Source of the DNA: a phage
Length of the DNA stretch: 64,000 bases
Reading direction: 5' to 3' (one strand)
Assembly (NCBI GenBank): GCA_032986305.1
Contig: GCA_032986305.1_3672.1
The translations under genes were made by a program, and so were the position numbers. Each line of letters starts with the position of its first letter. Position 1 is the stretch's first letter. A model generated the notes under the pieces. The model was given only the letters and a program-made list of their open reading frames with translations, searched no databases and was not told where the DNA came from. Of the stretch, positions 11,031-41,854 are shown one piece after another.

Positions 11031-11849
11031 TTGAGCAAGAAAGAGTCCAACGACAAATATTACACAAACCCTGAGTATGCAGAATATCTTGTTGGTAAAG
11101 TAAAAGACAAGTATGGGAATTGTGCATACGTTGAGCCTTCTGCTGGAAGGGGTTCTTTTTCAAAACTATTTTCAAAGATACTGTCGTACGATCTAGTACC
11201 AGATCCTGAATTTGAAGGACCAACACAGTGCATTCAGGCAAACTTCTTGGAGGTGCATCCCAAGGCAGATGTCTTCATAGGTAACCCACCATTTGGCAAG
11301 AATTCATCTTTAGCTTGCAAATTCTTTAACCATTGTGCATCATTGCTAGAGCTTGGCGGGGCTATAGCCTTCATATTGCCACGGACATTTGAAAAAATAT
11401 TTTTTGCAAACAAACTGGACATGTCTATGCACCTTGTCTACAGCGAAAGGTGCCCTAAGAACTCGTTTTTACTTAATGGCAAACCTTACGACGTGCCATG
11501 TGTTTTCCAAATTTGGGAGAAAAAGGCGTGCAATAGGGATCCTGTAGAGATTGGAGAGAATAAGTTATTTTCTTTTAGCACTCCAGATGACTACGACTTC
11601 TGTGTAAGACGTGTTGGGTATAATGCTGGAAAAGTATTGGGGGATGATGACCCAAAATCTGAAGAATCGACATATTTCATAAAATCTTTAGTTGACGGTG
11701 TTGACAGAGTGTTTGCCGAATGCTATTCTTCTTTTCAAGAAGAAGCAGGTAAGACTGCTGGAATGAAGAGTATAGGCAAGAAAGAACTACAATACATTTT
11801 GGAGACCCGGTATGATCAAAAGCATAGACTTGACCAAAGAACTTACTGA
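11031..11849 (+). CDS. DNA N6-adenine methyltransferase (putative)
   Basis: Motif I VEPSAGRGSF and motif IV GNPPFG; probable TTG start after RBS GGAGG. Confidence 0.6.
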   Translation: MSKKESNDKYYTNPEYAEYLVGKVKDKYGNCAYVEPSAGRGSFSKLFSKILSYDLVPDPEFEGPTQCIQANFLEVHPKADVFIGNPPFGKNSSLACKFFNHCASLLELGGAIAFILPRTFEKIFFANKLDMSMHLVYSERCPKNSFLLNGKPYDVPCVFQIWEKKACNRDPVEIGENKLFSFSTPDDYDFCVRRVGYNAGKVLGDDDPKSEESTYFIKSLVDGVDRVFAECYSSFQEEAGKTAGMKSIGKKELQYILETRYDQKHRLDQRTY

Positions 11850-27974: not shown

Positions 27975-28214
27975 ATGTATAAGTCATTTTCAATTTACTC
28001 AAGACAGGCAAAACACTACACAGAGATTCTGATCACTCAGAAAAAATCTGTAGAAGGTGAGTGGGAATATCATCATAAAATGTTGCGTCCAGACTGGGTT
28101 TTTGATAGACTTATTGCTATGATCCCTCTTGGAGAAGTATACCCTATGACAGGCCATAGGGATGCTTGGGATTTAATTGACTATATAGATTCATTTAAGG
28201 AGCCCAGTGTATGA
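27975..28214 (+). CDS. hypothetical protein
   Basis: 79 aa ORF. Confidence 0.4.
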   Translation: MYKSFSIYSRQAKHYTEILITQKKSVEGEWEYHHKMLRPDWVFDRLIAMIPLGEVYPMTGHRDAWDLIDYIDSFKEPSV

Positions 28215-28609
28215 AGATTGAGATCACTAAAGAAGGTAAGAAAGTGTCTGGAGACTATGCAACAGTAATTCGAGATTTAATGTTTGAAACCACCAAGTTC
28301 GGCACATCTAAAGTTGGTCAAACTGTTAGTGTGCAAGGTAATATCGTCTCAGGAGAGAAGATAATCATCGTAATAAAAGGCCAGGACCCTGTAGAAGGGA
28401 CAGTGGGCCGAGGAGGCTACCTGTGTATCTCTGAAGAGCCTCGTATGCTAGTTGCTGATAACTCTACAGGTAAAAAGCGGGTATGTAACACGGACGAGGT
28501 GATGATTATCTATCCAGTCAACCCAGATGATCCGGCAACATGGATTGTGGGAAATGAAATCTTCTCTTTAGAAGAGTTATCCTTCCCAGCTCCGCGCTCT
28601 GTTCAGTAA
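28211..28609 (+). CDS. hypothetical protein (MKIEIT-type small paralog family)
   Basis: 132 aa, begins MKIEITKEG. Confidence 0.45.
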   Translation: MKIEITKEGKKVSGDYATVIRDLMFETTKFGTSKVGQTVSVQGNIVSGEKIIIVIKGQDPVEGTVGRGGYLCISEEPRMLVADNSTGKKRVCNTDEVMIIYPVNPDDPATWIVGNEIFSLEELSFPAPRSVQ

Positions 28610-28648
28610 TAATTTATCTTACCAGGGACGGTAGAAGTAGGAGGTAGC

Positions 28649-28882
28649 ATGAAAGTTAAATTTCTTACAGATTTAGGGTACCCTTCCTTGGTTGACTGCA
28701 TTGGTAAAATTGTGGAAGCAAAACGGCTATCTGCAAACGATAATGTTGTCATGGTTAAGGGAAAAGATTTATTAGCTGCAGGTGCAGAGTCTGGCAGGAT
28801 CTCTCCTGACTATACATATTACCTATCTTTAAGTAATCTACCAGAACGAGGTGGCAAAGGCCTTGAAGTTGTGGAGGAGTGA
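28649..28882 (+). CDS. hypothetical protein (small paralog family)
   Basis: MKVKFLTDLGYPS...LLAAGAESG shares motifs with ORFs at 32323 and 32537. Confidence 0.45.
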   Translation: MKVKFLTDLGYPSLVDCIGKIVEAKRLSANDNVVMVKGKDLLAAGAESGRISPDYTYYLSLSNLPERGGKGLEVVEE

Positions 28883-28887
28883 CAGGT

Positions 28888-29412
28888 ATGCTTCTTATTA
28901 ACTGGGAAGACCTCTATGGGGACAAAGACCCTGTTGCGTTTGTTGATCGTAGATGGAGATATACTGAAGAACAACTGGCTGCAAAAAATTTAACTGCGAA
29001 ACGCAGAAAGATCATCCAGTGCAAGTATAAATACGCACAGTTTGCTGCAAAAGTGTCTCCACAAATCGAGAGCTTTGTGCTTAAATTGTATGACGAGTAC
29101 CTCAAATTCAGATTGGATTTTGTACAGGTATACCGTACACAGTTGCGCCCAGATACTAGCATTTGTAGATGGAAGGTTGTTTGTGACGGTAAAGATTTGC
29201 CGCTCAGCTTGACAATTGAGCAGCGTTGTGGGTATCATGAGTGCGGTCTGTATGAGACTTGGGATGTCATTGTAGATCCTGCTAAGTACCTGAACACGGA
29301 GGAGCTGGAATATATCAATAAGGTTATTCTAGATATGTTTTTCAGCTACACCTGTGAAAACTCCAAGAAAGAACGGGATACTTTTCTTGACACCATAAGC
29401 AACCATCTGTAG
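28888..29412 (+). CDS. hypothetical protein
   Basis: ATG after RBS GGAGGAG. Confidence 0.4.
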   Translation: MLLINWEDLYGDKDPVAFVDRRWRYTEEQLAAKNLTAKRRKIIQCKYKYAQFAAKVSPQIESFVLKLYDEYLKFRLDFVQVYRTQLRPDTSICRWKVVCDGKDLPLSLTIEQRCGYHECGLYETWDVIVDPAKYLNTEELEYINKVILDMFFSYTCENSKKERDTFLDTISNHL

Positions 29413-29442
29413 TATACAATTTAACCTACAAAGGGAGGGCTA

Positions 29443-29679
29443 ATGAGTATAAATGTTGTGTTAATAGGTTACCTGGTAATATCCGTTATAACAGCGGTAT
29501 TCTTGACAGGTATATGCATCGTGTCCAGACGAAGGGTGAAGTTTGATGATTTTATCACCATCATCACTGCTGCACCTTTTTGGCCTGTTGTTATCTTCAT
29601 AGTGATAATGTGTCTGGTTGATTACTACAAGAATATCCGTAAGGAGAAAAAGGAGAGTAGAGATGGATACCGCACCTAA
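29443..29679 (+). CDS. small membrane protein
   Basis: Two hydrophobic helices, basic C-terminus. Confidence 0.4.
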   Translation: MSINVVLIGYLVISVITAVFLTGICIVSRRRVKFDDFITIITAAPFWPVVIFIVIMCLVDYYKNIRKEKKESRDGYRT

Positions 29680-29815
29680 AACTATCTATGCTGTTCTTAA
29701 AGAGATTGCGTTCTACGCAGATCTTAGCAAGGCACCTTTATGGGAAAAGAGCATGTATTTAAAATGGTGCGTTAATTTAGGGAGACCTTCTAGTGTTTCA
29801 AGCCATGTTTATTGA
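29663..29815 (+). CDS. hypothetical protein
   Basis: ATG after RBS AGGAGAG. Confidence 0.3.
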   Translation: MDTAPKTIYAVLKEIAFYADLSKAPLWEKSMYLKWCVNLGRPSSVSSHVY

Positions 29816-29898
29816 GATGCTATCCGGGGTATTGTTACTGGTAGCCATCTTAGGTGGTGCAGTTCTGATGTATAACTATCTTGAAAAAGGAGACAGCA

Positions 29899-30084
29899 AT
29901 GGTAAAAAATAAATCTTTAGAGCAGGCTGAAAACCTTCTCCACGAGCTGGTAAAGGAGTGGAAAGTTGAATACTCAGATTTTAATGCACGAGAGGGTGAA
30001 GATTATTGGCCTACGGAGCGCTCAGAGGGAGAGTGGTATCAAGATTTTATAGAATGGCTATATCAGACGTGTGATGAGGGGTGA
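29899..30084 (+). CDS. hypothetical protein
   Basis: ATG after RBS AAAGGAGA. Confidence 0.4.
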   Translation: MVKNKSLEQAENLLHELVKEWKVEYSDFNAREGEDYWPTERSEGEWYQDFIEWLYQTCDEG

Positions 30085-30086
30085 CG

Positions 30087-30542
30087 ATGTTTGTTAAATA
30101 TGTAAAAACGTGCCTCAACAATCTTGGTAGAGAGCATTGGTACACCTTGCTTGAAAAAGGAGAAATTTTAACAAAATCTGGAAAGATAACTTTGATACCC
30201 TTGGACGATAAAGATCCGTCACTACTTATCATAGATGATTACGTTACAGGTGTGTCGTACGAGGTCTCTGTGGAGAGGTTAATACGTAGATCTGGAGGTC
30301 CTTATGACCGAAGAGAGTATGTTTTCGATTCTGTTACAGAGAAGGAAGATCCGTCTCTAATGTTTAGGATGGTAATCAGGGATATGAAATCATCTATAAA
30401 TAGGATCGTAAAGGACATTAAGGAGCCTTTTAGGGTAAAAGTTAAGAAGTTTTTTGATTCTAAGATTAACATACTTGCCGTTGTGCTAGGCGTAATTCAA
30501 CTTCTGTTAATTTTGCACTATCTTGAACTGTTGTTTAAGTAG
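30087..30542 (+). CDS. hypothetical protein with C-terminal TM helix
   Basis: 151 aa; C-terminal ILAVVLGVIQLLLIL. Confidence 0.4.
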   Translation: MFVKYVKTCLNNLGREHWYTLLEKGEILTKSGKITLIPLDDKDPSLLIIDDYVTGVSYEVSVERLIRRSGGPYDRREYVFDSVTEKEDPSLMFRMVIRDMKSSINRIVKDIKEPFRVKVKKFFDSKINILAVVLGVIQLLLILHYLELLFK

Positions 30543-30602
30543 CGTGCAATAAGGCACAAAGGATGTGCCATAATTAAATAGGTTAAGAAAGAGGTAGAGA
30601 GA

Positions 30603-30968
30603 ATGACAAATATTAAATCGATATTAAAATGGGTAGCTGCTATGGGGCTGGTAACCGTCGTGGCTTTTATAGGGTACTGGGTTTGGGAAACTGAATTAAA
30701 AGATATCGGATATACCAGTCTTGAGAGCAAGGCGTGTATTGGCATAACCGATGCATTCAGGCAAAATGCCATGGATCACGAATGTGTCGATGCAGATATA
30801 GATGAGAAACTGTCTAAGGACAAAGATTTTTACCATGGTCATGCCTTGCTTGATAGTGGTGACACTGTAGAATTCTGGTCGTGGTTCCGTGAAGATGGAA
30901 CAATAAAGACAGCAGTAAAGATTTCCAACAAAGAGTTAATGCTGTTGCAGCAGAAGGAGGTGCAATGA
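30603..30968 (+). CDS. hypothetical protein with N-terminal signal anchor
   Basis: RBS GAGGTAGAGAG; hydrophobic N-terminus. Confidence 0.45.
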   Translation: MTNIKSILKWVAAMGLVTVVAFIGYWVWETELKDIGYTSLESKACIGITDAFRQNAMDHECVDADIDEKLSKDKDFYHGHALLDSGDTVEFWSWFREDGTIKTAVKISNKELMLLQQKEVQ

Positions 30969-31252
30969 TTTGGATATCCTACACTGATGGCACCATGCTG
31001 TATACTGCAGGTACTAGGTATGAAGTCCAGGAGGACGATAAAAAATTTATCGTAAAAACATTTGACAAGGACGACAACCTTTTGTTAGAATTGACTTACA
31101 AGGTTGGGGAGGTATCTAGCATCCAATTGGATTGCGGTCATAAAGATAACCCGCTCAAGAAACCTGGGGTAGGTAAAGCTTCAGAAGAACGCCTGTCTCG
31201 TATTGCAGAAAGCGTTTCTGCACAAAAATCTAAGAAGGGGACTAGAAAATGA
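30965..31252 (+). CDS. hypothetical protein
   Basis: ATGA overlap, 95 aa. Confidence 0.4.
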   Translation: MIWISYTDGTMLYTAGTRYEVQEDDKKFIVKTFDKDDNLLLELTYKVGEVSSIQLDCGHKDNPLKKPGVGKASEERLSRIAESVSAQKSKKGTRK

Positions 31253-31443
31253 AAAACTTACGTTTTAACACTTATTACTACAACACTTTGAATGATTTGT
31301 ATTATATTATTCGAAGTAAAAGTCCTGAAACAGTCCTATTCTGCCGCGAACCTTTCAAAGGAGAGGAAGTAGAGTCTGAGATGAATGTTAGCCATATTAC
31401 CTCTTTGTTGCTCTCAGGTGCAATGGAAGAAGCAATATTCTAA
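31249..31443 (+). CDS. hypothetical protein
   Basis: ATGA overlap, 64 aa. Confidence 0.35.
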   Translation: MKNLRFNTYYYNTLNDLYYIIRSKSPETVLFCREPFKGEEVESEMNVSHITSLLLSGAMEEAIF

Positions 31444-31460
31444 ACCGGGCGGGAGGGTTT

Positions 31461-31646
31461 ATGAAGCACTATTGCCTGTTTGGTAGGATGGGTGTAGAGT
31501 GTGATTGGGTTTTCTTAAAACTTGTCAGCATCCGAGAGTCAATCCCAGAGGAAGAGCAAGAAAGTGAGCTGATGTCATGGATCAACTATTACGGCAACAC
31601 TTTCCGGTATGTCAAAATGGAAGGGCTGCCAAGCGAGGATGATTGA
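31461..31646 (+). CDS. hypothetical protein
   Basis: 61 aa after RBS GGGAGGG. Confidence 0.35.
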   Translation: MKHYCLFGRMGVECDWVFLKLVSIRESIPEEEQESELMSWINYYGNTFRYVKMEGLPSEDD

Positions 31647-31741
31647 TTATGATTGCATCAATATTAACGTTTATGGGTGGCGTGGCAGTCGGATTCATTA
31701 TTTGCCTGTTTATAGTGATTATGTCTATGCGAGGCTGACTT

Positions 31742-32026
31742 ATGAAACTGTTCGAGTGGTTTAAAAAGTTTAAATATCGGGCCGTTGCTGTATCGAAATG
31801 GACCGTCCGCTGGGTGGACAATGATGGAACACAAATTCCCGGTGATCAGGATACCGGATACTGGGTTATGATGGAGAACGGATTTGGGAAAAGGAAGTTT
31901 AAATGTGTTGGTGCTCCTACTCTTTTAAATGTTAGAAGTGTGCCAGGGTACAGCACTATGGTTGTTTGGGAGCTATCCGGTGTTCCTCCTGCCAATGTGC
32001 AATATCTGCCAAACCCAGAAAAATAA
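31742..32026 (+). CDS. hypothetical protein
   Basis: 94 aa ORF. Confidence 0.4.
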   Translation: MKLFEWFKKFKYRAVAVSKWTVRWVDNDGTQIPGDQDTGYWVMMENGFGKRKFKCVGAPTLLNVRSVPGYSTMVVWELSGVPPANVQYLPNPEK

Positions 32027-32038
32027 AAGGAGAAGATA

Positions 32039-32323
32039 ATGAGCAATGGTGTTAGCAATAGTGCTGCAGAGTTTAAAGTGATCTGTGAAGGAACTTATTG
32101 GATAGTGAAACAGAAAGTGTACCTATTCGGTTTCATACCGTTTTGGCAGAGATTTTGCTGGGGAGCTAACGAGCTTAAAAGATACGCCACCAAGTCTATG
32201 GCACTTATTGGTATAGCTGAATACATTGCTGCCAGAGACAGAGAGGGGAAAACTTGTTACTACACTGCTGACGAGATTCGTAACAGTGTTTACGTTCCAC
32301 AGCCGCCCGATGGAGACCGCTGA
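32039..32323 (+). CDS. hypothetical protein
   Basis: RBS AAGGAGAAG; 94 aa. Confidence 0.4.
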   Translation: MSNGVSNSAAEFKVICEGTYWIVKQKVYLFGFIPFWQRFCWGANELKRYATKSMALIGIAEYIAARDREGKTCYYTADEIRNSVYVPQPPDGDR

Positions 32324-32547
32324 TGAAAGTGAAAGTTTTAGATTCAAACTTCTATATTGGTCAAGAGCCTTTAGTTGGAAAAGTGTTTACCGCTATCCCT
32401 AACGAAGATTATCCTGACCTTTTAAAAATAAAAGGGGCAGATCTTATTGCCGCTGGCGCGTCTCAGGAATGCTTTGACAGTCAGTGGGCCTACAACTTTG
32501 CCCTAGGGGAGGATGTGGAGATAGTGGAGGACGATTATGAAGGTTAA
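32323..32547 (+). CDS. hypothetical protein (MKVK paralog)
   Basis: MKVKVLDSNFYIGQ...DLIAAGASQ; paralog of 32537 gene. Confidence 0.5.
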   Translation: MKVKVLDSNFYIGQEPLVGKVFTAIPNEDYPDLLKIKGADLIAAGASQECFDSQWAYNFALGEDVEIVEDDYEG

Positions 32548-32791
32548 AATTCTTGACTCTAACGTCTACTTGGGACAATCATTCCTGAAGGGAAAGGTAG
32601 TACCTGCTGTATACTTCGAAGGGTTGCCGTGGGATGATCCTGTGCGGCAAAATCACAGCTATGTAGGCCACAATGTGGTGTTCATTTTGGGATCAGACCT
32701 GATCGCGGCTGGTGCTCCGGAATATTATTTCGGAGAGGACTCGTATTATGCCTTTGGGGTAGGGTCAGATGCAGATATTTTAGAGCCGTGA
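32537..32791 (+). CDS. hypothetical protein (MKVK paralog)
   Basis: MKVKILDSNVYLGQ...DLIAAGAPE; tandem paralog. Confidence 0.5.
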   Translation: MKVKILDSNVYLGQSFLKGKVVPAVYFEGLPWDDPVRQNHSYVGHNVVFILGSDLIAAGAPEYYFGEDSYYAFGVGSDADILEP

Positions 32792-33202
32792 TTGGGGACT
32801 GTTGTGAAAAATAAACTGTTCAAAGTTACAATGAAAATTCGCGGAGCTTGGAGCGTAAAGCAAGGGCGTATCCCAGAGTTTGAGAAAGACTTCTACGTAG
32901 TCTCCACCTCTAAAGAGGCTGCATGCTGGCAGGCTGGATATGCCTATGCAAGAACCTGGTACGAAGGATACCAGACTGGAGGCTATGACGGAGAAATTGT
33001 CAGCAAGGGTGTGGAAGAAATTAATGTGTTGACAAGTGAAAAAGTTTTTGTTATAGTGCATCCTGATTCCAGAGTGAAGCATTACTGGAATGCCAGAACA
33101 AAAACTTGGACACCGTTTGCAGATTCTGCTACACCACTTTTAAACCAAAAAGCTCTTGACTCTGCCCCGAGCTATGGGGTTGTTGAAGAAAAGCTAGACT
33201 GA
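32792..33202 (+). CDS. hypothetical protein (paralog of 35012 gene)
   Basis: Shares VxHPxSxxxYW...WTP C-terminal motif with 35012..35407; start uncertain (TTG/GTG/ATG). Confidence 0.4.
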   Translation: MGTVVKNKLFKVTMKIRGAWSVKQGRIPEFEKDFYVVSTSKEAACWQAGYAYARTWYEGYQTGGYDGEIVSKGVEEINVLTSEKVFVIVHPDSRVKHYWNARTKTWTPFADSATPLLNQKALDSAPSYGVVEEKLD

Positions 33203-33219
33203 AACAGTGAGGTGCCACT

Positions 33220-33510
33220 ATGATGGATTTAGTTCTGAATATTGATAACGCAGGAGAGGTTAAAGACGATGGTGTAACAAGCATGGACCAACCATGCCCT
33301 GCCAAGATTGACTCAAAATGGACATATAAGTTTGACGGAGAGATCTTTGCAAATGATGAAAAGGTTGTAGATGCTGCAGCCATTTTGAACGCTCTAGGGT
33401 ACGACCCTGTGAATTCTTTGATCAAGGATCCTGTTGAGTTTGCAGAGTATGTTCGAAAAATGGCAGATCTTGCTGTAGATATTTTAGATACTATCGACAA
33501 CAATCTGTAA
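33220..33510 (+). CDS. hypothetical acidic protein
   Basis: 96 aa after RBS GAGGTG. Confidence 0.4.
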   Translation: MMDLVLNIDNAGEVKDDGVTSMDQPCPAKIDSKWTYKFDGEIFANDEKVVDAAAILNALGYDPVNSLIKDPVEFAEYVRKMADLAVDILDTIDNNL

Positions 33511-33516
33511 AAACTG

Positions 33517-33545
33517 TTGACACAACGCTTCAGCTATAGTATTAT
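33517..33545 (+). promoter_or_regulatory. sigma70-like promoter upstream of HPF homolog
   Basis: TTGACA - 17 nt - TATTAT. Confidence 0.5.
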
Positions 33546-33592
33546 TGTTTTCAAAGAGGGTTTGGTTCCCTCTTCTTTAAAAGGAGCACGTT

Positions 33593-33910
33593 ATGCAAAT
33601 TGAAATCACTGGCAACGTAGAAATCACTGAAGGCATGGTGTCTTTCATTTCCCACAAAATGTCAAAACTGGAGCGTCTACATCCTTCTGTAAATCATGCA
33701 CGTGTAAGTGTAAAAGTTGAAAATGACCACCAGGAAGTTATGGCGTTCATTTTTGACAATTCTGGAAAAGAAGTTATTGCCAAAGCTAAAGGTAGTGATG
33801 CTTACGAGGCAACTGACCGTATGGTAGATGTTGCAGCACGTCAGCTGGCTAAGTGCGGTGGAAAGAAAGGTAAGGGGAAAGGCAAAGTAAAGATTGACTT
33901 TGGAGAATGA
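33593..33910 (+). CDS. ribosome hibernation promoting factor homolog (HPF/RaiA, S30AE family)
   Basis: MQIEITGNVEITEGM...KLERL...VSVKVE...GSDAYEATDRMVDVAARQLAK aligns along length with recalled E. coli HPF. Confidence 0.7.
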   Translation: MQIEITGNVEITEGMVSFISHKMSKLERLHPSVNHARVSVKVENDHQEVMAFIFDNSGKEVIAKAKGSDAYEATDRMVDVAARQLAKCGGKKGKGKGKVKIDFGE

Positions 33911-34047
33911 GGTGCTATAATGGGAGTGATTAAGAAATTAGTCCCAAATGTAGAGATTGCATGCTTTGAAATTATGTTTGCAATCGCAGTTGTAGTTAAT
34001 GTGTTAGGTTACGGCTATTAATATCAAATAATTGAGGAGACCTCTAA

Positions 34048-34317
34048 ATGAAAATTAAATTATTCAAAACTGAGCTGGCAGACAAAAACTGTGGACTGGT
34101 TGAAGGCATGATTGTTGAAGCACAACCAGTGGACTATATGAAGGTGGTTCGTGATGCACTGGGTGAAGGCTTTGATCTGATGGAGCCAGCTCTGCGAGAA
34201 GATGTTATCGAGATGGCTAAAAAGCACACACCTGAAGGCTTGGTGGTGTTTGTTGCACCAGGTAACGGAGAAGAGTTGATTGTAACTCCTGATGTGTATG
34301 AGATTGTAGAAGGGTAA
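34048..34317 (+). CDS. hypothetical protein (small paralog family)
   Basis: MKIKLFKTEL..., RBS GAGGAGA. Confidence 0.45.
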   Translation: MKIKLFKTELADKNCGLVEGMIVEAQPVDYMKVVRDALGEGFDLMEPALREDVIEMAKKHTPEGLVVFVAPGNGEELIVTPDVYEIVEG

Positions 34318-34411
34318 TCCTGCTTGGATTAGCATACTCCCTCAATAAAAAGAAAAGTTTGTAATTATTTGTGGGAAAGGAATCCCCATCTCTTGCCAGA
34401 GGTGATACTAT

Positions 34412-34675
34412 ATGATTGTTTATTTTAAAACTTCAGGTGGATACCCTGATTCTCAAAGCTTGATCGGAAAAACGTGCACAGCATACTCACCTCTTGATGA
34501 GGAGGTAAGCGATATCCTACGAGATATGTATCGGATTGATCCCCAAGAAGCTTTTGATCAAAACCTTGTATTTGTCAAGGGCTCAGACATGAAGTCTTTG
34601 GGAGCATTTCCTGAAGCAGATGATGATGCCGTTTATTCGTTCATGACCCCTTTTGAAGCTATGGTTGTTGGGTGA
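34412..34675 (+). CDS. hypothetical protein (small paralog family)
   Basis: 87 aa, acidic. Confidence 0.4.
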   Translation: MIVYFKTSGGYPDSQSLIGKTCTAYSPLDEEVSDILRDMYRIDPQEAFDQNLVFVKGSDMKSLGAFPEADDDAVYSFMTPFEAMVVG

Positions 34676-34679
34676 GAAT

Positions 34680-35012
34680 ATGAAAGTACGATTTATTGGT
34701 GAAACAATTCCTGTGCATCTCCGGTCTCCTGAAGATTCTGCAGATCTTGCATCTCAGAAGGCGAGAGGTTATGATAAGAAAGTAATCTCAACCGATGTAG
34801 AACTTGAGGCTACTAGTTTACCTGACCCTGCTGCATTCTTTAATCATTATGGATACTATTTCAGCAATCTTATGAATATCGGTGAGCTTGTGTTTATTAG
34901 TGGTGGAGAAATTGTTAGCAAGCTTGGCGGCGATCCGGATATCTTTCATGAAACCTGTCCTTTTGCATTTGTGGTGGGTTCAGATGTGGAAGTTATTGAG
35001 GAGGTGCGGTAA
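34680..35012 (+). CDS. hypothetical protein (small paralog family)
   Basis: MKVRFIGET...; ends ATGA-type overlap at 35012. Confidence 0.4.
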   Translation: MKVRFIGETIPVHLRSPEDSADLASQKARGYDKKVISTDVELEATSLPDPAAFFNHYGYYFSNLMNIGELVFISGGEIVSKLGGDPDIFHETCPFAFVVGSDVEVIEEVR

Positions 35013-35407
35013 TGGTAAGCCTATACCGTGTTGAGTATAGCTCAGATACTGTATACAACGTAAGAAGCAAAGATCGCAGCGACAGAGTGCAAGAAATGTA
35101 TGTTCTTGCCGACAGTCCGTTATCTGCAGCGTTCAAGGCAGGGGCTCTTGCATCTCGTTGGAAATTTGAAGGCGGATCTTTCTATGAAGAAACCCTTGAA
35201 GATTCTGTTGTTATTTCTTCTGTAGAGGTTTCAGATGACTACGAAGGGAAAAAGTTCGTAATGCGGCACCCACACAGCAACATTGCGTACTACTGGGATG
35301 TTCTGAACAACGAGTGGACCCCAGATCTTCAGAAGGCTACTGTGCTAACACCGTTTTTGGCAGATAAGTTTCCACCAGAAGGTAATTTATCCGCACTGTT
35401 TCAGTAA
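35012..35407 (+). CDS. hypothetical protein (paralog of 32792 gene)
   Basis: MRHPHSNIAYYWDVLNNEWTP matches VIVHPDSRVKHYWNARTKTWTP. Confidence 0.45.
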   Translation: MVSLYRVEYSSDTVYNVRSKDRSDRVQEMYVLADSPLSAAFKAGALASRWKFEGGSFYEETLEDSVVISSVEVSDDYEGKKFVMRHPHSNIAYYWDVLNNEWTPDLQKATVLTPFLADKFPPEGNLSALFQ

Positions 35408-35425
35408 TTTTCTTGCACACAGGTG

Positions 35426-35454
35426 TTGACAACGCCAACCCTGTGTGAAATAAT
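35426..35454 (+). promoter_or_regulatory. sigma70-like promoter
   Basis: TTGACA - 17 nt - AATAAT. Confidence 0.4.
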
Positions 35455-35486
35455 ACCTTCATCTTAACAAGACAGGAGACCGATTG

Positions 35487-35744
35487 ATGAAGATTAAATT
35501 GAAAAACCTTGAAACGGCAGAGATTCAGGACGGTGTGGATTTCCGTTCTAAAGATGGTGACATCTTAGAGGTAAATATTCCAACCTACGAGCTGATCAAA
35601 GGTTTTGGCAACGTCCCCGAGGAAGGTATCGCAGACGTTCTTCTAATGTTAATCGTTAGTGGGACAGTGTTCTTGGGGGAAGGTGAGAACGCTATTGCAA
35701 TCCCAAGCCATTTTTATGAAGTAGTTGACGAAGAGGTGCTGTAA
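35487..35744 (+). CDS. hypothetical protein (small paralog family)
   Basis: MKIKLKNLE..., RBS AGGAGA. Confidence 0.45.
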   Translation: MKIKLKNLETAEIQDGVDFRSKDGDILEVNIPTYELIKGFGNVPEEGIADVLLMLIVSGTVFLGEGENAIAIPSHFYEVVDEEVL

Positions 35745-36095
35745 ATGAAAGTAGAAATTACTGGTTTTGATGTGAATGTGGTTCCGGAAGATATTTTAGC
35801 TAAACTCCCGGAAGGTTTTGGTAACGGTGTTGTGGTGGATGCTGTTCCTCCTACCAAAGACATTCTGCTGCAGTATGGTGTAGCAGAGGAAGATGTTGAT
35901 AAAGTTCTTACAATGATGGCAATCGATCGTGTTGTCGTTGTTAAGGGTCTCGATAATTTTGAGAGTGATCCCCTGATTATTCGTGGAGATGACTACAAAG
36001 TCATCGATAATGAAGGCCAAGAGTTCTATGAGCCTTGTGCAGAAGATATTCTTAACTTATTACTGGAAGCAGGCACCGAAGAGGAGGACGAATAA
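35745..36095 (+). CDS. hypothetical protein (small paralog family)
   Basis: MKVEITGFD..., acidic tail. Confidence 0.45.
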   Translation: MKVEITGFDVNVVPEDILAKLPEGFGNGVVVDAVPPTKDILLQYGVAEEDVDKVLTMMAIDRVVVVKGLDNFESDPLIIRGDDYKVIDNEGQEFYEPCAEDILNLLLEAGTEEEDE

Positions 36096-36424
36096 TGAAG
36101 ATTGACCAGTTACTGAAGGCTCGTGCAGAAAAAGCTTACACCATTAAGCTTACCAACCTGGTCCCTACTTGTCATCCGGATGTAGGTTGGCCCGAAGGTT
36201 TGGTGGAGGGAACTGTAACAGCTGCATACCTTCCTAACATCAAATACCTCATGGAGATCTTAGAGATGGATGAGGAAACTGCAGAACAGTTCCAGTTGGA
36301 TATGAAACAGAGTGGGACTCTGGTTATTCACGGGTGGTATAATACTAAAGATGCAGAAGACCCTCTGGTAACTTCTAATCTGGCATATGAAATCTTAGGG
36401 CCTTTGAACCTGGAGGAAGACTAA
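36095..36424 (+). CDS. hypothetical protein
   Basis: ATGA-coupled, 109 aa. Confidence 0.4.
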   Translation: MKIDQLLKARAEKAYTIKLTNLVPTCHPDVGWPEGLVEGTVTAAYLPNIKYLMEILEMDEETAEQFQLDMKQSGTLVIHGWYNTKDAEDPLVTSNLAYEILGPLNLEED

Positions 36425-36711
36425 TGAAAGATCTGGTTAAGATTAAGATTAAAGATACCAATGGGGAGCTCAGCCATTTTGGAATTAATGATGGTGACGA
36501 GCTGATCGCACACCTGCCTACCAAGGAGGTTGTAAGCAAAGCAGTTGCCGGAGAAGAAGCTGCAATGCAGGCTGCAGGTGTGGATGAAAACTATGTAGCT
36601 ATGTGCATGTGCCGAGATCAGGTTGTTCTGTATAAAGCGTATCGACCAAGCGGAGCCACGGAGTGGCTTGTATTCCGACCCGAAGGGTATGAAATCTTAG
36701 AGGCACTATGA
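36424..36711 (+). CDS. hypothetical protein
   Basis: 95 aa, coupled to upstream gene. Confidence 0.4.
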   Translation: MKDLVKIKIKDTNGELSHFGINDGDELIAHLPTKEVVSKAVAGEEAAMQAAGVDENYVAMCMCRDQVVLYKAYRPSGATEWLVFRPEGYEILEAL

Positions 36712-37219: not shown

Positions 37220-37471
37220 ATGACGAAGATTGACTTGAATGCTGGCGACCATGTTGTTGTCAAATGCATCGGAGATTATCTTGGATTCACAATCGGCAAT
37301 ACTTACGAGGCGGTAGTGGCGAAGGTTTATCATGATAAAGTCCTCAGTCTTGTATTTGACTGCGATGATGATGGGGATGACCGATACGTTTGTGAGGTGC
37401 TGGCACGAGACGATAGTGAAGACCAGAAATTCCTGGTTATTGAACTGAACGGTATTTTTGTAGAACGTTAA
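37220..37471 (+). CDS. hypothetical protein
   Basis: MTKIDLNAGD..., 83 aa. Confidence 0.4.
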   Translation: MTKIDLNAGDHVVVKCIGDYLGFTIGNTYEAVVAKVYHDKVLSLVFDCDDDGDDRYVCEVLARDDSEDQKFLVIELNGIFVER

Positions 37472-37858: not shown

Positions 37859-38185
37859 ATGGGTATACCGGTCACTGTAAAAGAATTGAATGAACGTGAT
37901 GCAGGTGGTCTATGGCCTGCACGAAAAATACGCTGCGTCTACATGAAAGAGAACCTTGAACATCTTGATCAACAGATCAAGGTCGGTGATATTTTCGAGG
38001 TCTTCTATTCCAATCGTCGCAACTGGGAAACCATTCAGCCTTCTGGTTTTGTTCTTGCCAAACTTGACACTGGAGAAGTGATTATTCCAGGGTTGGATAT
38101 TGTCTTCGAAATTATCCAGGAGTGGGATCCGGATAAGATTAGATACGAAGAGTTATTCGGTAAAGGTATTATCAAACCTGTGTGA
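37859..38185 (+). CDS. hypothetical protein
   Basis: RBS GGAGA; 108 aa. Confidence 0.4.
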   Translation: MGIPVTVKELNERDAGGLWPARKIRCVYMKENLEHLDQQIKVGDIFEVFYSNRRNWETIQPSGFVLAKLDTGEVIIPGLDIVFEIIQEWDPDKIRYEELFGKGIIKPV

Positions 38186-38193
38186 GGTGGATT

Positions 38194-38493
38194 ATGTCTA
38201 CAAAGGCGGCTAAATACTCTTACATGCCATCAACCTCTGCAGAGGTAGACTTTAGTTTTGATGTGTTTCCACTGTTCGAGGTGGTTCTGGCATACCCAAC
38301 AATACTATCTACCCCTGAATCACTTGTGCCTGTTAAGTTGCAGAACGCTATGCATTCTATGCATTACAACAATAAATGTAGGCACAGATGGTGTCAGGAC
38401 GAGGAAAAGGATCTGGACAGTTTGAGAGATTTTGACAATCACCTTTTGACACCTTTCAGCTACTCCAACCTTGATAAGCCCTCATGGATATAG
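38194..38493 (+). CDS. hypothetical protein
   Basis: ATG after RBS GAGGTGG. Confidence 0.4.
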   Translation: MSTKAAKYSYMPSTSAEVDFSFDVFPLFEVVLAYPTILSTPESLVPVKLQNAMHSMHYNNKCRHRWCQDEEKDLDSLRDFDNHLLTPFSYSNLDKPSWI

Positions 38494-39187: not shown

Positions 39188-39403
39188 ATGAAGATAGAAA
39201 TATTTGGTGGAGCTGACAACACTCGTGGCCTGATTTACCTTGAATTCGATGAATCATACCTGCCAGAGGTGTTAAATATAAACTCTGTTGCTGAGGCTTT
39301 GGGAGTAAACCCTAAAGAACTCCACTCTTGTGCTGAGATCGATGGTTGGGAAGAGACCATGAACATTGATTTCAGTGAAGTAGAGGATGAACCGCTGGAC
39401 TGA
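39188..39403 (+). CDS. hypothetical protein (MKIEI small paralog family)
   Basis: MKIEIFGGADNT..., RBS AGAGGAGA. Confidence 0.45.
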   Translation: MKIEIFGGADNTRGLIYLEFDESYLPEVLNINSVAEALGVNPKELHSCAEIDGWEETMNIDFSEVEDEPLD

Positions 39404-40985
39404 CACACAATTAGCTGCCCGGCTAAAGTGCTGGAAGCACCTATAACACATCTTTCAACTAAATTTCCCACCACCACAATCACTTACCTCCCACACATGA
39501 CTGTTTGCTTGTTTAGTGAGCAGTCATGCCTTGACATTCTTGCCTATCCTGATAAAATTAAGTTCTTCTCTTTTCTTTTACCGAGTAATTCGGGTTTTCT
39601 GTTCTCTTCGGTTTGAAGAGGTATGGAGATACACCTGAGTGAACAGGGTGAACAACCGAACCATTGGCTATGGCATTAGCATGGCGAAGCGGACGGGTGA
39701 CGAAAGAGGGGCCGGAGGACACCAGTCACTGCCATATGATATACGGGTGATAACCTGAAGAGTCTGAATAAGTGTTTAAGTACCAGTCAGAGGAAAAGGT
39801 GAATGGTAGCCGAAGGGGGAGGGGGGTTTCTTGTATCTTTAATTTGTATATTATGTATACACTTGTAAACCAATCTCATCTGAATCTGTTTACTACACAA
39901 AGCTGATAGGGACAAATATTACCTATTAAACTTGAATTATTTATAGAAAATACCACAACACAACTTAAGTCTTTGATTTTACACACAAATCCTGCAGATA
40001 TTCACCCTCCATATTTAACATACTTGTAACATATTCCATACTCTACCTACCTGATCAATTTACCCACCAACATCCTCCATATTTTCCCTGTCTGTACCAC
40101 CCCTGCCCCGCCGGGAGTCCCGTCATATCTGGCTTTCCAGCAAATATCACACCCACAAATATCATTGCCTGAAGAGGATTTCATCTCATAATACATGCCT
40201 TGCCTGAAGAGCGCTTCATACACCACGTAAATTTTTTAATTGACCCCCTCCCCGCCGCCGGAGAGGTTGGCTTTTCCCACACAGACCTGAAGAGTCAGCC
40301 AGAAATATCTGAATGGACCCAATTCTGCCCTGTTATGAGCCGTAGCTACTGGAGTGCTGCCAGGCGGACGAAATGGGAATACTTCTCATTCTTATAACAA
40401 TTCTCAAATATCAAGGCAGTGAGTCAAATTAATAGGCGAGGCCGTTCACACAGTGGCACAACATTTGCAACCTATCTTGTGGGGGTGAATGAGAATACCT
40501 ATCATTGTGAGAATAGTTATCATTACGGGCAATTTAACATAATACCCATTATGCGCACCACTGGCGATACATACAGGGATTGATAACATGAGTTACTGTT
40601 TACGCATATAACAATTATATTTCTTACTATTTGTGTGGGATATAGTTAGCAGCCAATAGATTAGATATTGACCTGTAGACTTCCAACCGTCTAGACGTCT
40701 AAACGCCCACACAGCAAGGGTTATACATACACTTCTGAATGTAAACAGGGCCGCAAAAATGCTACCATACCAGTTTGTAAATTTTTCATGCAGCACTTGA
40801 CAAAGAGGAGAAAAACTTGTCTGACACTTTAGACACAATAGTGACATACTATGACACCTTTGACACTTTTGCATACCTGATTGTTTGCATGTCTAATAGT
40901 TTACATGGATAACTGTTCACATACTTATCATTTACATGATTGACTGTTTACACAAATATGATAAGCCATGACATTCGTTTGCATG

Positions 40986-41045
40986 AAAACAATTAACAAG
41001 ATAACAATTGACAAGCTAACAGCCAACAAGCTGACAATTAACAGG
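40986..41045. repeat. four tandem 15-bp iteron-like direct repeats
   Basis: AACAATTAACAAG / ATAACAATTGACAAG / CTAACAGCCAACAAG / CTGACAATTAACAGG. Confidence 0.6.
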
Positions 41046-41056
41046 TTAATAATATA

Positions 41057-41229
41057 TGACATAATATAAAAGCAGGGCAACTATTAGCAGATCTATAGTT
41101 GCCTTGCTTGTTATGTCATGATTAACTAAATACAAGGCAACTATGATCTGATTAATAGTTTGCAGACAAACTATCACGGGGGTGATTGTTACTGCTTTTA
41201 TATTATGTCGCGACTCCGTCGCGACATGT
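41057..41229. repeat. nested inverted repeats (cruciform-capable locus)
   Basis: 19-bp arms TGACATAATATAAAAGCAG and CTGCTTTTATATTATGTCA; inner hairpin GGCAACTAT...ATAGTTGCC; 10-bp palindrome ATGTCGCGAC..GTCGCGACAT. Confidence 0.6.
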
Positions 41230-41854
41230 CATTCGTTTGCATAGTTGCCTTATTGTTACGGATAAAATAATTGTATTGTTAATTATTTCTTATCTTTCTC
41301 TTAGTCATCTAATGATTCCAGTCAGTATAGTAATGTACAGTAAACATTAGACGACTAAATATTTCTCTGATTATAGTAACCTATCGTGACAATTTCGGAC
41401 TGTTTACGAAAAATGTTGACACCTGGGCAGGTTTATGTTATGCAGTTTGTACGAATAATTATTTTATACAGGTATTGACTATTCCGTTATTCTGTGGTTG
41501 GAATAAATACTTTGCAGGCTATAGAATGATGTTCGTACGTGAATTCTGAGATCTGTCGGCTATAGTTACACCCGATTTTTCACGTAGGACACGCTTTTTG
41601 GTTTGTGTAAGTGTATGACTTATAAGGGTTTTTAATTGTTGACAGTATGCTGAAAATGTGCATCAGGTTAAATTTTGTGCAATAGCTGCATTACGTGCGT
41701 TTTTGGAAGGAAAAACGTGTAAAAATGACCCTGCTACCACAAGATGAAAGATTATGCAATAGTTATTTTATATGTATATTTGTACAGTGTGCGGGATTAA
41801 TGGCTCGTCAATTATTCCACTTGCCAGGTAGGGCCGTTTATGGTAGGAAAAGAG

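Follow-up and report, generated by a model that had tools for sequence, protein, structure and literature searches.

The phage sequence GCA_032986305.1_3672.1, all 64,000 nucleotides of which are called the window here, carries about 25 genes between positions 28211 and 36711. The locus raises the question of whether these genes are copies of one another and, if so, what such copies would do for the phage. The original prediction described one multigene family of a kind typical of host-takeover or counter-defence loci. Paralogy is present, but 12 of the ~25 genes fall into three families, A (five genes), B (two genes) and C (five genes), which lie amid unrelated genes. The best explanation, held with slightly better than even confidence, is that they encode non-essential early binding proteins with counter-defence roles specific to particular host strains. 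It draws mainly on a cassette of two A genes and one B gene whose counterparts in the related phage Bas54 lose all transposon insertions on one clinical isolate.

Family membership was tested by all-against-all blastp and by Smith-Waterman alignment calibrated with 300 composition-preserving shuffles per pair (528 pairs). This all-against-all alignment, which had been proposed as a check, separates three groups. For A and C, leave-one-out hidden Markov models (HMMs) were built from four members and their orthologues and searched against the 227 open reading frames (ORFs) of at least 50 amino acids (aa) in the window. The predicted + strand ORFs are present and agree with the GenBank annotation of the close relatives EmilHeitz, JohannBauhin and MaxBurger. 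The members of the three families, named below by their start positions, are as follows.

28649..28882, + strand: family A, solitary copy, 77 aa, begins MKVKF and contains DLLAAGA; phrog_5009 E 6e-36, leave-one-out HMM E 1.6e-10.
32323..32547, + strand: family A, 74 aa, gene 1 of A-A-B cassette 1, structure modelled; phrog_5009 E 6e-38.
32537..32791, + strand: family A, 84 aa, gene 2 of cassette 1; 41% identity to 32323 (E 6e-15), phrog_5009 E 4e-32.
32792..33202, + strand: family B, 136 aa from TTG 32792, gene 3 of cassette 1, paralog of 35012; phrog_7379 E 3e-73.
34048..34317, + strand: family C, solitary, 89 aa, begins MKIKLF, upstream of cassette 2; leave-one-out HMM E 7.7e-4, top non-training match.
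34412..34675, + strand: family A, 87 aa, insertion between strands 2 and 3, gene 1 of cassette 2; leave-one-out HMM E 1.9e-5, phrog_5009 E 1.2e-4.
34680..35012, + strand: family A, 110 aa, long insertion, gene 2 of cassette 2; leave-one-out HMM E 7.3e-7, no match from the phrog_5009 model.
35012..35407, + strand: family B, 131 aa, gene 3 of cassette 2, start overlaps the 34680 stop; phrog_7379 E 2e-66, no relative in Pfam or the Protein Data Bank (PDB).
35487..35744, + strand: family C, 85 aa, opens a run of four abutting C genes, structure modelled.
35745..36095, + strand: family C, 116 aa, net charge about -21, isoelectric point (pI) 4.05; leave-one-out HMM E 1.8e-8.
36095..36424, + strand: family C, 109 aa; leave-one-out HMM E 1.5e-3, top non-training match.
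36424..36711, + strand: family C, 95 aa; leave-one-out HMM E 6e-5.

Four of the A genes (28649, 32323, 32537 and 34680) are linked at shuffle-calibrated p values of 1e-14 to 4e-5, which pass a Bonferroni correction for 528 pairs, and 34412 is tied to three family A members at p 2e-4 to 8e-4. The two B proteins are 28% identical across 119 aa, with a blastp E of 8e-10 and a shuffle-calibrated p of 7e-10. Single pairs within C are weak (p 2e-3 to 2e-2); seven of the ten possible pairs are among the top 28 of the 528. The omitted member was the best non-training match in all ten leave-one-out trials. Its E value lay between 1.9e-5 and 1.7e-21 in the A trials and between 1.5e-3 and 1.8e-8 in the C trials, and the next ORF had E>0.1. 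Gene 34680, which the PHROG model misses, was recovered in these trials. No further A, B or C member was found elsewhere in the window, and a profile comparison of A with B gave no signal. On these alignments the paralogy within A, within B and within C is highly significant and real.

The PHROG database independently unites three A genes (phrog_5009: 28649, 32323, 32537) and both B genes (phrog_7379), with end-to-end matches at E 1e-32 to 1e-73. The phrog_5009 profile reads MKVKxL...GK.V.A...G.DLI.AGA...Y.F...E.VE. The scheme differs from the grouping given here in that 34412 and 34680 have families of their own (13920, 13661) and each C gene is in a separate family (11868, 12359, 12155, 12457, 12794), so the five-plus-five grouping of A and C is lost there. 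All of these PHROGs carry the label "unknown function". Scans of A, B and C against Pfam, NCBIfam and PADLOC, the last of which covers defence proteins, returned no match, and PDB sequence searches with the family profiles gave chance-level matches only, among them a weak resemblance of the family A "G.DLI.AGA" stretch to adhesin repeats.

Several details of the original prediction change with this grouping. At least ten ORFs were said to begin with MK[IV][KE][IVLF]; seven do so exactly (28211, 28649, 32323, 32537, 34048, 35487, 35745) and three to four are near misses (MKVRF, MKIDQ, MKDLV, MIVYF). The motif DLIAAGA occurs in 32323 and 32537 as described, while 28649 reads DLLAAGA. The 32792/35012 pair is upheld, with its motif corrected to V..HP.S....YW......WTP. 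Gene 28211 carries the N-terminal pattern, but neither pairwise nor HMM comparison linked it significantly to another gene of the array. The genes are also not all adjacent, as 28649 is separated from 32323 by eleven unrelated genes.

Two stretches of the array have the order A-A-B (32323-32537-32792 and 34412-34680-35012), and each time the B start abuts or overlaps the stop of the second A gene. Abutting or overlapping starts and stops (1-11 nt) are common in the array, as had been noted; they occur at 28211/27975, 28879/28649, 32323/32039, 32537/32323 (an 11-nt overlap), 32792/32537, 35012/34680, 35745/35487, 36095/35745 and 36424/36095. GenBank relatives start the first B gene at ATG 32831, whereas TTG 32792 comes directly after the stop of 32537. 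The residues added by the TTG start match both the PHROG profile and the N-terminal end of paralog 35012, so the annotated start may be too short. Strict copying of the A-A-B module could not be demonstrated, as the A genes of cassette 1, 32323 and 32537, resemble one another more than they do either A gene of cassette 2.

The window belongs to a Vequintavirus (rV5-like coliphage). The interval 28211-36711 is kept whole, at 90-95% DNA identity, in 115 of 122 related GenBank records, and more than 115 phage records, nearly all of them Vequintavirus, match it from end to end at 93-95%. The ratio of nonsynonymous to synonymous substitution rates (dN/dS) between the window and EmilHeitz is 0.00-0.12 in all 12 A, B and C genes. 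A metagenomic sister lineage (L005), whose ClpP is 69% identical and which has no close relative among GenBank phages, carries the same five A and five C genes in the same order, with one B gene instead of two as the sole change in copy number. The low dN/dS and the stable copy number indicate that the families are old and under purifying selection, and therefore not "diversifying" as had been proposed. A DNA-level repeat search found short chance matches only; because no repeats remain, the duplications are taken to be old and the copies individually conserved. Array proteins are 27-74% identical between the window and this lineage and the annotated enzymes 64-85%, so the array families evolve faster than the core enzymes, yet without diversifying.

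Two further differences were seen in the sister lineage. An extra 98-aa gene (PF27050, Phage_P22_Y8K6) lies at 11092-11388, between its family B gene and the C run, and a non-B gene of 96 aa stands at the place expected for the cassette 1 B gene. Within the genus, genes 30081, 30603, 30965, 31249, 31461 and 31742 (interval 30081-32026) have no blastp match (E<=1e-5) among the Bas54 genes of this region, where the counterpart lies between bas54_0160 and bas54_0161. The within-genus variable part is thus the unrelated middle section and not the paralog families.

Structure prediction, which had also been suggested, was run on one A and one C protein. AlphaFold2 models with family alignments reached a mean predicted local distance difference test (pLDDT) score of 89.8 for 32323 (A) and 90.7 for 35487 (C). 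Both are five-strand, partly open barrels that can be superimposed on SH3, KOW or PsaE domains, and the C model has two helices inserted between strands 2 and 3. The extra residues of the A genes 34412, 34680 and 32537 fall at the same position. Nine of the ten A and C proteins have a pI of 4.0-4.8 and a net charge of -6 to -21. A and C are therefore predicted with high confidence to be small acidic cytoplasmic SH3-like beta-barrels. The fold resembles SH3 domains, PsaE, the KOW domains of Spt5/NusG and the C-terminal domain of retroviral integrase at 5-20% sequence identity; unlike SH3 and KOW barrels, A and C are strongly acidic, C has the two-helix insertion, and no Pfam SH3 or KOW match is found. 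No A or C protein had any Pfam match at E<=1, KOW included, which gives no indication of membership in the KOW/NusG-Spt5 group. The resemblance is one of fold only and carries no specific information on function. A search of a viral structure library with the A model returned many nameless small phage proteins, with no characterised protein and no C member recognised among the top 50. No match to a known inhibitor was found in Pfam, NCBIfam, PDB sequences or PDB folds, none of which is a dedicated anti-defence profile library.

The shared fold raises the possibility that the ten A and C genes are a single diverged superfamily, derived from one ancestral SH3-like gene and kept as an arsenal of specialised inhibitors. 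The two families have an identical predicted fold, open with the same MK[IV]K[IVLF] first strand, carry a variable insertion at the same point between strands 2 and 3, and occupy the same gene block; in addition, the C member 35745 was repeatedly the next-best, non-significant match of the family A HMMs. Profile-profile comparison with hhalign gives only P 0.003-0.011, with the alignment limited to the first 25-30 residues. A sequence-level link failed with small alignments, ortholog-enriched alignments, insertion-trimmed cores and a diverse 64-sequence A profile. When the variable insertion was trimmed and the cores compared with 150 column-shuffled controls, the full A and C cores outscored all 150; after the first five columns were dropped, 13 of 150 local and 60 of 150 global shuffles scored as high and the signal was gone. 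Likeness in sequence between A and C is thus confined to the N-terminal pentapeptide. Within each family significant similarity continues past the N-terminal tetrapeptide, and it is between A and C that the original prediction of one family fails. Small SH3-like barrels and MK-hydrophobic starts are common, and no C protein could be recognised among the 50 nearest structural neighbours of the A model, about half of which are nameless. Common descent is not established, because the common fold is a frequent one. A single superfamily is plausible, though it is regarded as the less probable view.

Functional evidence comes from a preprint describing HIDEN-SEQ, a transposon-insertion sequencing (Tn-seq) study of Bas54 (phage MaxBurger, MZ501093; 10.1101/2025.11.20.689424). 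Bas54 genes, whose proteins are 89-100% identical to those of the array, were mapped to the window by blastp, and the values below are from Extended Data Table 8 of that preprint. The C run corresponds to bas54_0146-0149, three of which are 96-99% identical and one (0149/35487) 89%. Cassette 2 corresponds to bas54_0150 (35012, 99%), 0151 (34680, 98%) and 0152 (34412, 99%), and bas54_0153 is 34048 (99%). Further upstream, bas54_0155 is the RaiA gene, 0157 is 32792 (98%), 0158 is 32537 (94%), 0159 is 32323 (92%) and 0166 is 28649 (95%).

All genes from bas54_0146 to 0167 are classed as "non-essential" or "intermediate" on E. coli K-12, with insertion saturation slightly reduced, to about 0.7, in bas54_0151 to 0153. 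On the uropathogenic clinical isolate "311" (CFE311) the result for cassette 2 is very different. Relative to K-12 BW25113, mean counts fall from 108 to 0 in 0150 (log2 fold change (log2FC) -6.77), from 71 to 0 in 0151 (log2FC -6.17) and from 142 to 0 in 0152 (log2FC -7.16), each with an adjusted p of 0. The first B copy, 0157, falls about 4-fold (log2FC -2.14, adjusted p 0), and the fall in 0153 (log2FC -2.78) is not significant. Orthologues of 34412, 34680 and 35012, and partly of 32792, are dispensable on K-12 and, in these Tn-seq data, appear to be needed on CFE311, with polarity possible. The evidence for a host-specific requirement is direct though preliminary in the case of cassette 2 and weaker in that of the first B copy. 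Knock-outs made by the authors of the preprint established that bas54_0063 and bas54_0140 are needed against DS-28, a predicted defence system of CFE311. The latter gene corresponds to 38194-38493 (+ strand, 97%) of the window, about 1.5 kb past 36711 in the same gene block. The cassette 2 requirement and this validated anti-DS-28 gene 3 kb downstream favour a counter-defence role.

Expression of the block can be approached through its promoters. Sites of the form TTGACA-N16-18-TAnnnT occur 16 times per strand in the window, against a rough estimate of about one expected per strand, and 30 of the 32 point along the coding direction of their arm. In the gaps of the array they lie upstream of 27975, 29443, 33593, 34048 (site at 33894-33921), 35487, where the site precedes the four-gene C run (35487-36711), and 37093. 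These strong sigma-70-type sites run in the same direction as the genes. It is inferred that the host RNA polymerase transcribes them, which would place expression early or midway in infection; the block and both arms of the window look to be transcribed in this way. No Vequintavirus transcriptome was found in the literature.

Taken together, the region is probably part of a non-essential accessory early-gene block; it holds three old families, in which each copy is kept by purifying selection. The A, B and C proteins would be made early from host sigma-70 promoters and would work stoichiometrically, binding and so neutralising host factors that are specific to certain strains. Those factors would most probably be anti-phage defence proteins, with different paralogs of use on different hosts. 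The A copies may act in pairs and jointly with B. A counter-defence role for the remaining A and C genes would be a guess by association.

Several points weigh against a counter-defence role. No A, B or C member has a demonstrated target or biochemical activity, and the strain-specific factor need not be a defence system. Two defence systems are listed for CFE311, DS-28 and Gao_Tmn, and the cassette is tied to neither. The depletion of cassette 2 is taken from a supplementary table of a preprint whose main text covers only bas54_0063 and bas54_0140, so that the cassette signal is undiscussed and without clean deletions (10.1101/2025.11.20.689424). Sheets S6 ("CFE303") and S7 ("CFE311") of that table carry the same "311" run (B54_2_311) with the same command line and numbers; there is no CFE303 result for Bas54, because sheet S6 duplicates the CFE311 analysis. 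Insertions in 0152 and 0151 could act by polarity or translational coupling on 0150, in which case only the B gene is strictly implicated. The authors hold that polarity is not widespread, and their transposon carries no terminator; in addition, 0157 is affected while the A genes just upstream of it, 0158 and 0159, are not, which speaks mildly against strong polarity. On CFE311 no change is seen in the C run or in 0158, 0159 and 0166, which so have no phenotype on either host, and a host-specific requirement was not found for the other A and C genes in the CFE311 data. The early timing of the array is inferred from promoter-like motifs, and the relationship between A and C from a common predicted fold that is a frequent one. 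The original prediction of a host-takeover or counter-defence locus is thus supported for part of the array, given the promoters, the dispensability on K-12 and the losses on CFE311 in the 34412, 34680 and 35012 orthologues, while the remaining A and C genes are without a phenotype.

A more elaborate scheme is that the A-A-B cassette is a three-part anti-defence module, in which a heterodimer of SH3-like barrels acts with B to disarm an immunity system that uropathogenic E. coli carries. All ten barrels of A and C would then belong to a single ancient superfamily of modular inhibitors that lytic and temperate phages share, with every member adapted to its own host system. This scheme is considered unlikely as a whole.

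The proteins could also be general host-takeover factors, whose SH3/KOW-like barrels dock on RNA polymerase, ribosomes or the degradosome in every host, and which act alongside the RaiA/HPF homologue, ClpP-like protease and PhoH-like ATPase of the same region to redirect gene expression. The fold-search matches include Spt5 KOW domains and ribosomal proteins, a ribosome hibernation factor lies in the middle of the array, sigma-70-type promoters are present, and insertion saturation in bas54_0151 to 0153 is slightly reduced on K-12. However, every array gene tolerates insertions on K-12, the strong phenotype is restricted to one clinical strain, and neither KOW nor any other Pfam domain is matched. 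General takeover is therefore an improbable account of the array, although it has some evidence in its favour.

Acidic nucleic-acid mimics of the Ocr/ArdA type, which would soak up DNA-binding defence enzymes such as those of restriction or BREX-type systems, are a still less probable explanation. The very low pI, the net charge down to about -21 in 35745, the small size of the proteins and the position of their genes in a likely early block would suit a mimic, but the predicted fold, a compact beta-barrel, does not resemble Ocr, which is elongated, helical and DNA-like in shape. Searches by sequence and by fold matched no known mimic, and the most acidic members, those of family C, are without a phenotype on CFE311. 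Finally, chance or compositional similarity between unrelated ORFs that share only the N-terminal tetrapeptide describes A against C and 28211 against all others, but for relationships within A, B and C it is refuted by the composition-preserving shuffles, the leave-one-out profiles and the independent PHROG grouping of three A genes and both B genes, and as an account of the array it is very improbable indeed.

Strain-specific counter-defence remains the favoured role, and in this respect the array can be set beside described clusters of small anti-defence genes, such as anti-CRISPR loci, the accessory early genes of T4 and bas54_0140 against DS-28. The genes here are likewise small, non-essential and promoter-proximal, and some of them appear to be conditionally essential on a single natural isolate. 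Unlike anti-CRISPR loci, which typically turn over fast, the array is stable in copy number and sequence. Its proteins have no sequence relationship to described anti-defence proteins and no cognate defence system has been identified. A separate preprint on the evolution of Bas54 found changes at tail-fibre loci and not in this block.

Family A reaches well beyond the genus. A tblastn search of 32323 against GenBank phages found matches within the genus only, and the wider family becomes visible only by profile search. When 1.84 billion representatives were searched exhaustively with HMMER, 89 family A proteins came up at E<=1e-3, mostly stand-alone and 63-90 aa long, and phrog_5009 matched all 64 distant representatives scanned. 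Two or three A domains are fused in a single chain in several proteins (P0105, P0106, P0136, P0155, P0171), and one protein is a fusion with DUF3310. The giant repeat proteins P0111 and P0152 returned by the same search are probably an adhesin-repeat artefact. Since adjacent or fused pairs recur, the working unit of family A is suggested to be a pair of barrels. A word-seeded search of 5.8 billion proteins gave only 41 clusters for A, 55 for C and 8 for B, and each of the 96 A and C clusters had one particular window paralog as its best blastp match. B and C appear to be confined to the rV5-like lineage.

Lambdoid prophages of E. coli carry P0031, a homologue from family A of 75 aa with 49% identity to 28649, between the Q antiterminator and the holin, the place of lambdoid moron or accessory genes; of 5,426 complete E. 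coli genomes, 35 have this prophage segment. Family A genes are also found in phages of Proteus, Aeromonas, Pseudomonas, Pantoea and Klebsiella; in two Proteus phages they lie at the equivalent position, upstream of lysis genes. An unclassified 8.6-kb contig carries an adjacent family A pair beside genes for a portal, an SU10-type major capsid protein and a terminase. The lambdoid gene is a single copy under late or lysogenic control, in contrast to the multi-copy, putatively early array in the window. By profile similarity, family A belongs to a wider uncharacterised phage domain family (the phrog_5009 group).

Literature searches on rV5 paralogs, Vequintavirus transcriptomes and SH3-like anti-defence proteins did not turn up these families. 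Both the sequences and the PHROGs that unite B and part of A were already public; within the searchable literature, no account was found of the 5+2+5 structure, the SH3-like predictions, the wider family A with its fused repeats, the repeated A-A-B order or the link to the Tn-seq data. Vequintavirus phages, which are rV5-like E. coli myoviruses of about 137 kb, are widely isolated as candidates for biocontrol and therapy, and most of their genes are annotated as hypothetical. The block is resolved here into three defined families, two of them with a confident predicted fold and one a widespread phage domain. Cassette 2 is linked to an unexploited strain-specific signal on a clinical isolate, which gives a testable hypothesis with named genes and a named host strain. 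If it is true, a new protein family would join the counter-defence repertoire and could help to predict or engineer the host range of Vequintavirus phages.

The remaining features of the region are as follows.

28211..28609, + strand: 132 aa, begins MKIEI, own PHROG 5748, not linked to A, B or C.
28879..32323, + strand: eleven unrelated small genes between the first A copy and cassette 1, each with its own PHROG and without cross-similarity.
33593..33910, + strand: ribosome hibernation factor (RaiA/HPF-like) that lies within the array but is no paralog of the other genes; Pfam PF02482 (S30AE).

The match of 33593 to PF02482 (E 4.2e-13, 50.3 bits, cut-off 23.7) is above the gathering threshold and was the sole Pfam match above the curated cut-off among 20 array proteins scanned. 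The gene has its own TTGACA promoter-like site at 33517-33545, and relatives carry the same annotation. Its Bas54 orthologue, bas54_0155, tolerates insertions on both K-12 and CFE311 (10.1101/2025.11.20.689424). Apart from this factor and a putative glycosidase (28879 in the window), the relatives annotate every gene of the block as "hypothetical protein". The PhoH-like ATPase, the ClpP-like protease and an N6-adenine methyltransferase are encoded upstream of the array. Just downstream, 37220-37471 and 37859-38185 (both + strand) encode two more small acidic proteins with beta-rich sequences. The second has a marginal match to the family A HMM (E 0.6), and both products might be additional SH3-like barrels.

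Among the records similar to the region, 18 (MG0656xx) are labelled as Campylobacter jejuni phages ("Campylobacter phage D1, C2, A135 ...") and are 92-95% identical to it; they seem to be rV5-like coliphages that were mislabelled or came in as contaminants. Rfam matched nothing between 27 and 42 kb. The coding strand and the guanine-cytosine skew of the window switch at about 39200-41700, with + strand genes before and - strand genes after. The Bas54 equivalent is a gene-free gap of about 2.5 kb with zero transposon insertions, and according to a second preprint it contains the terminal repeats that are the physical ends of the genome.

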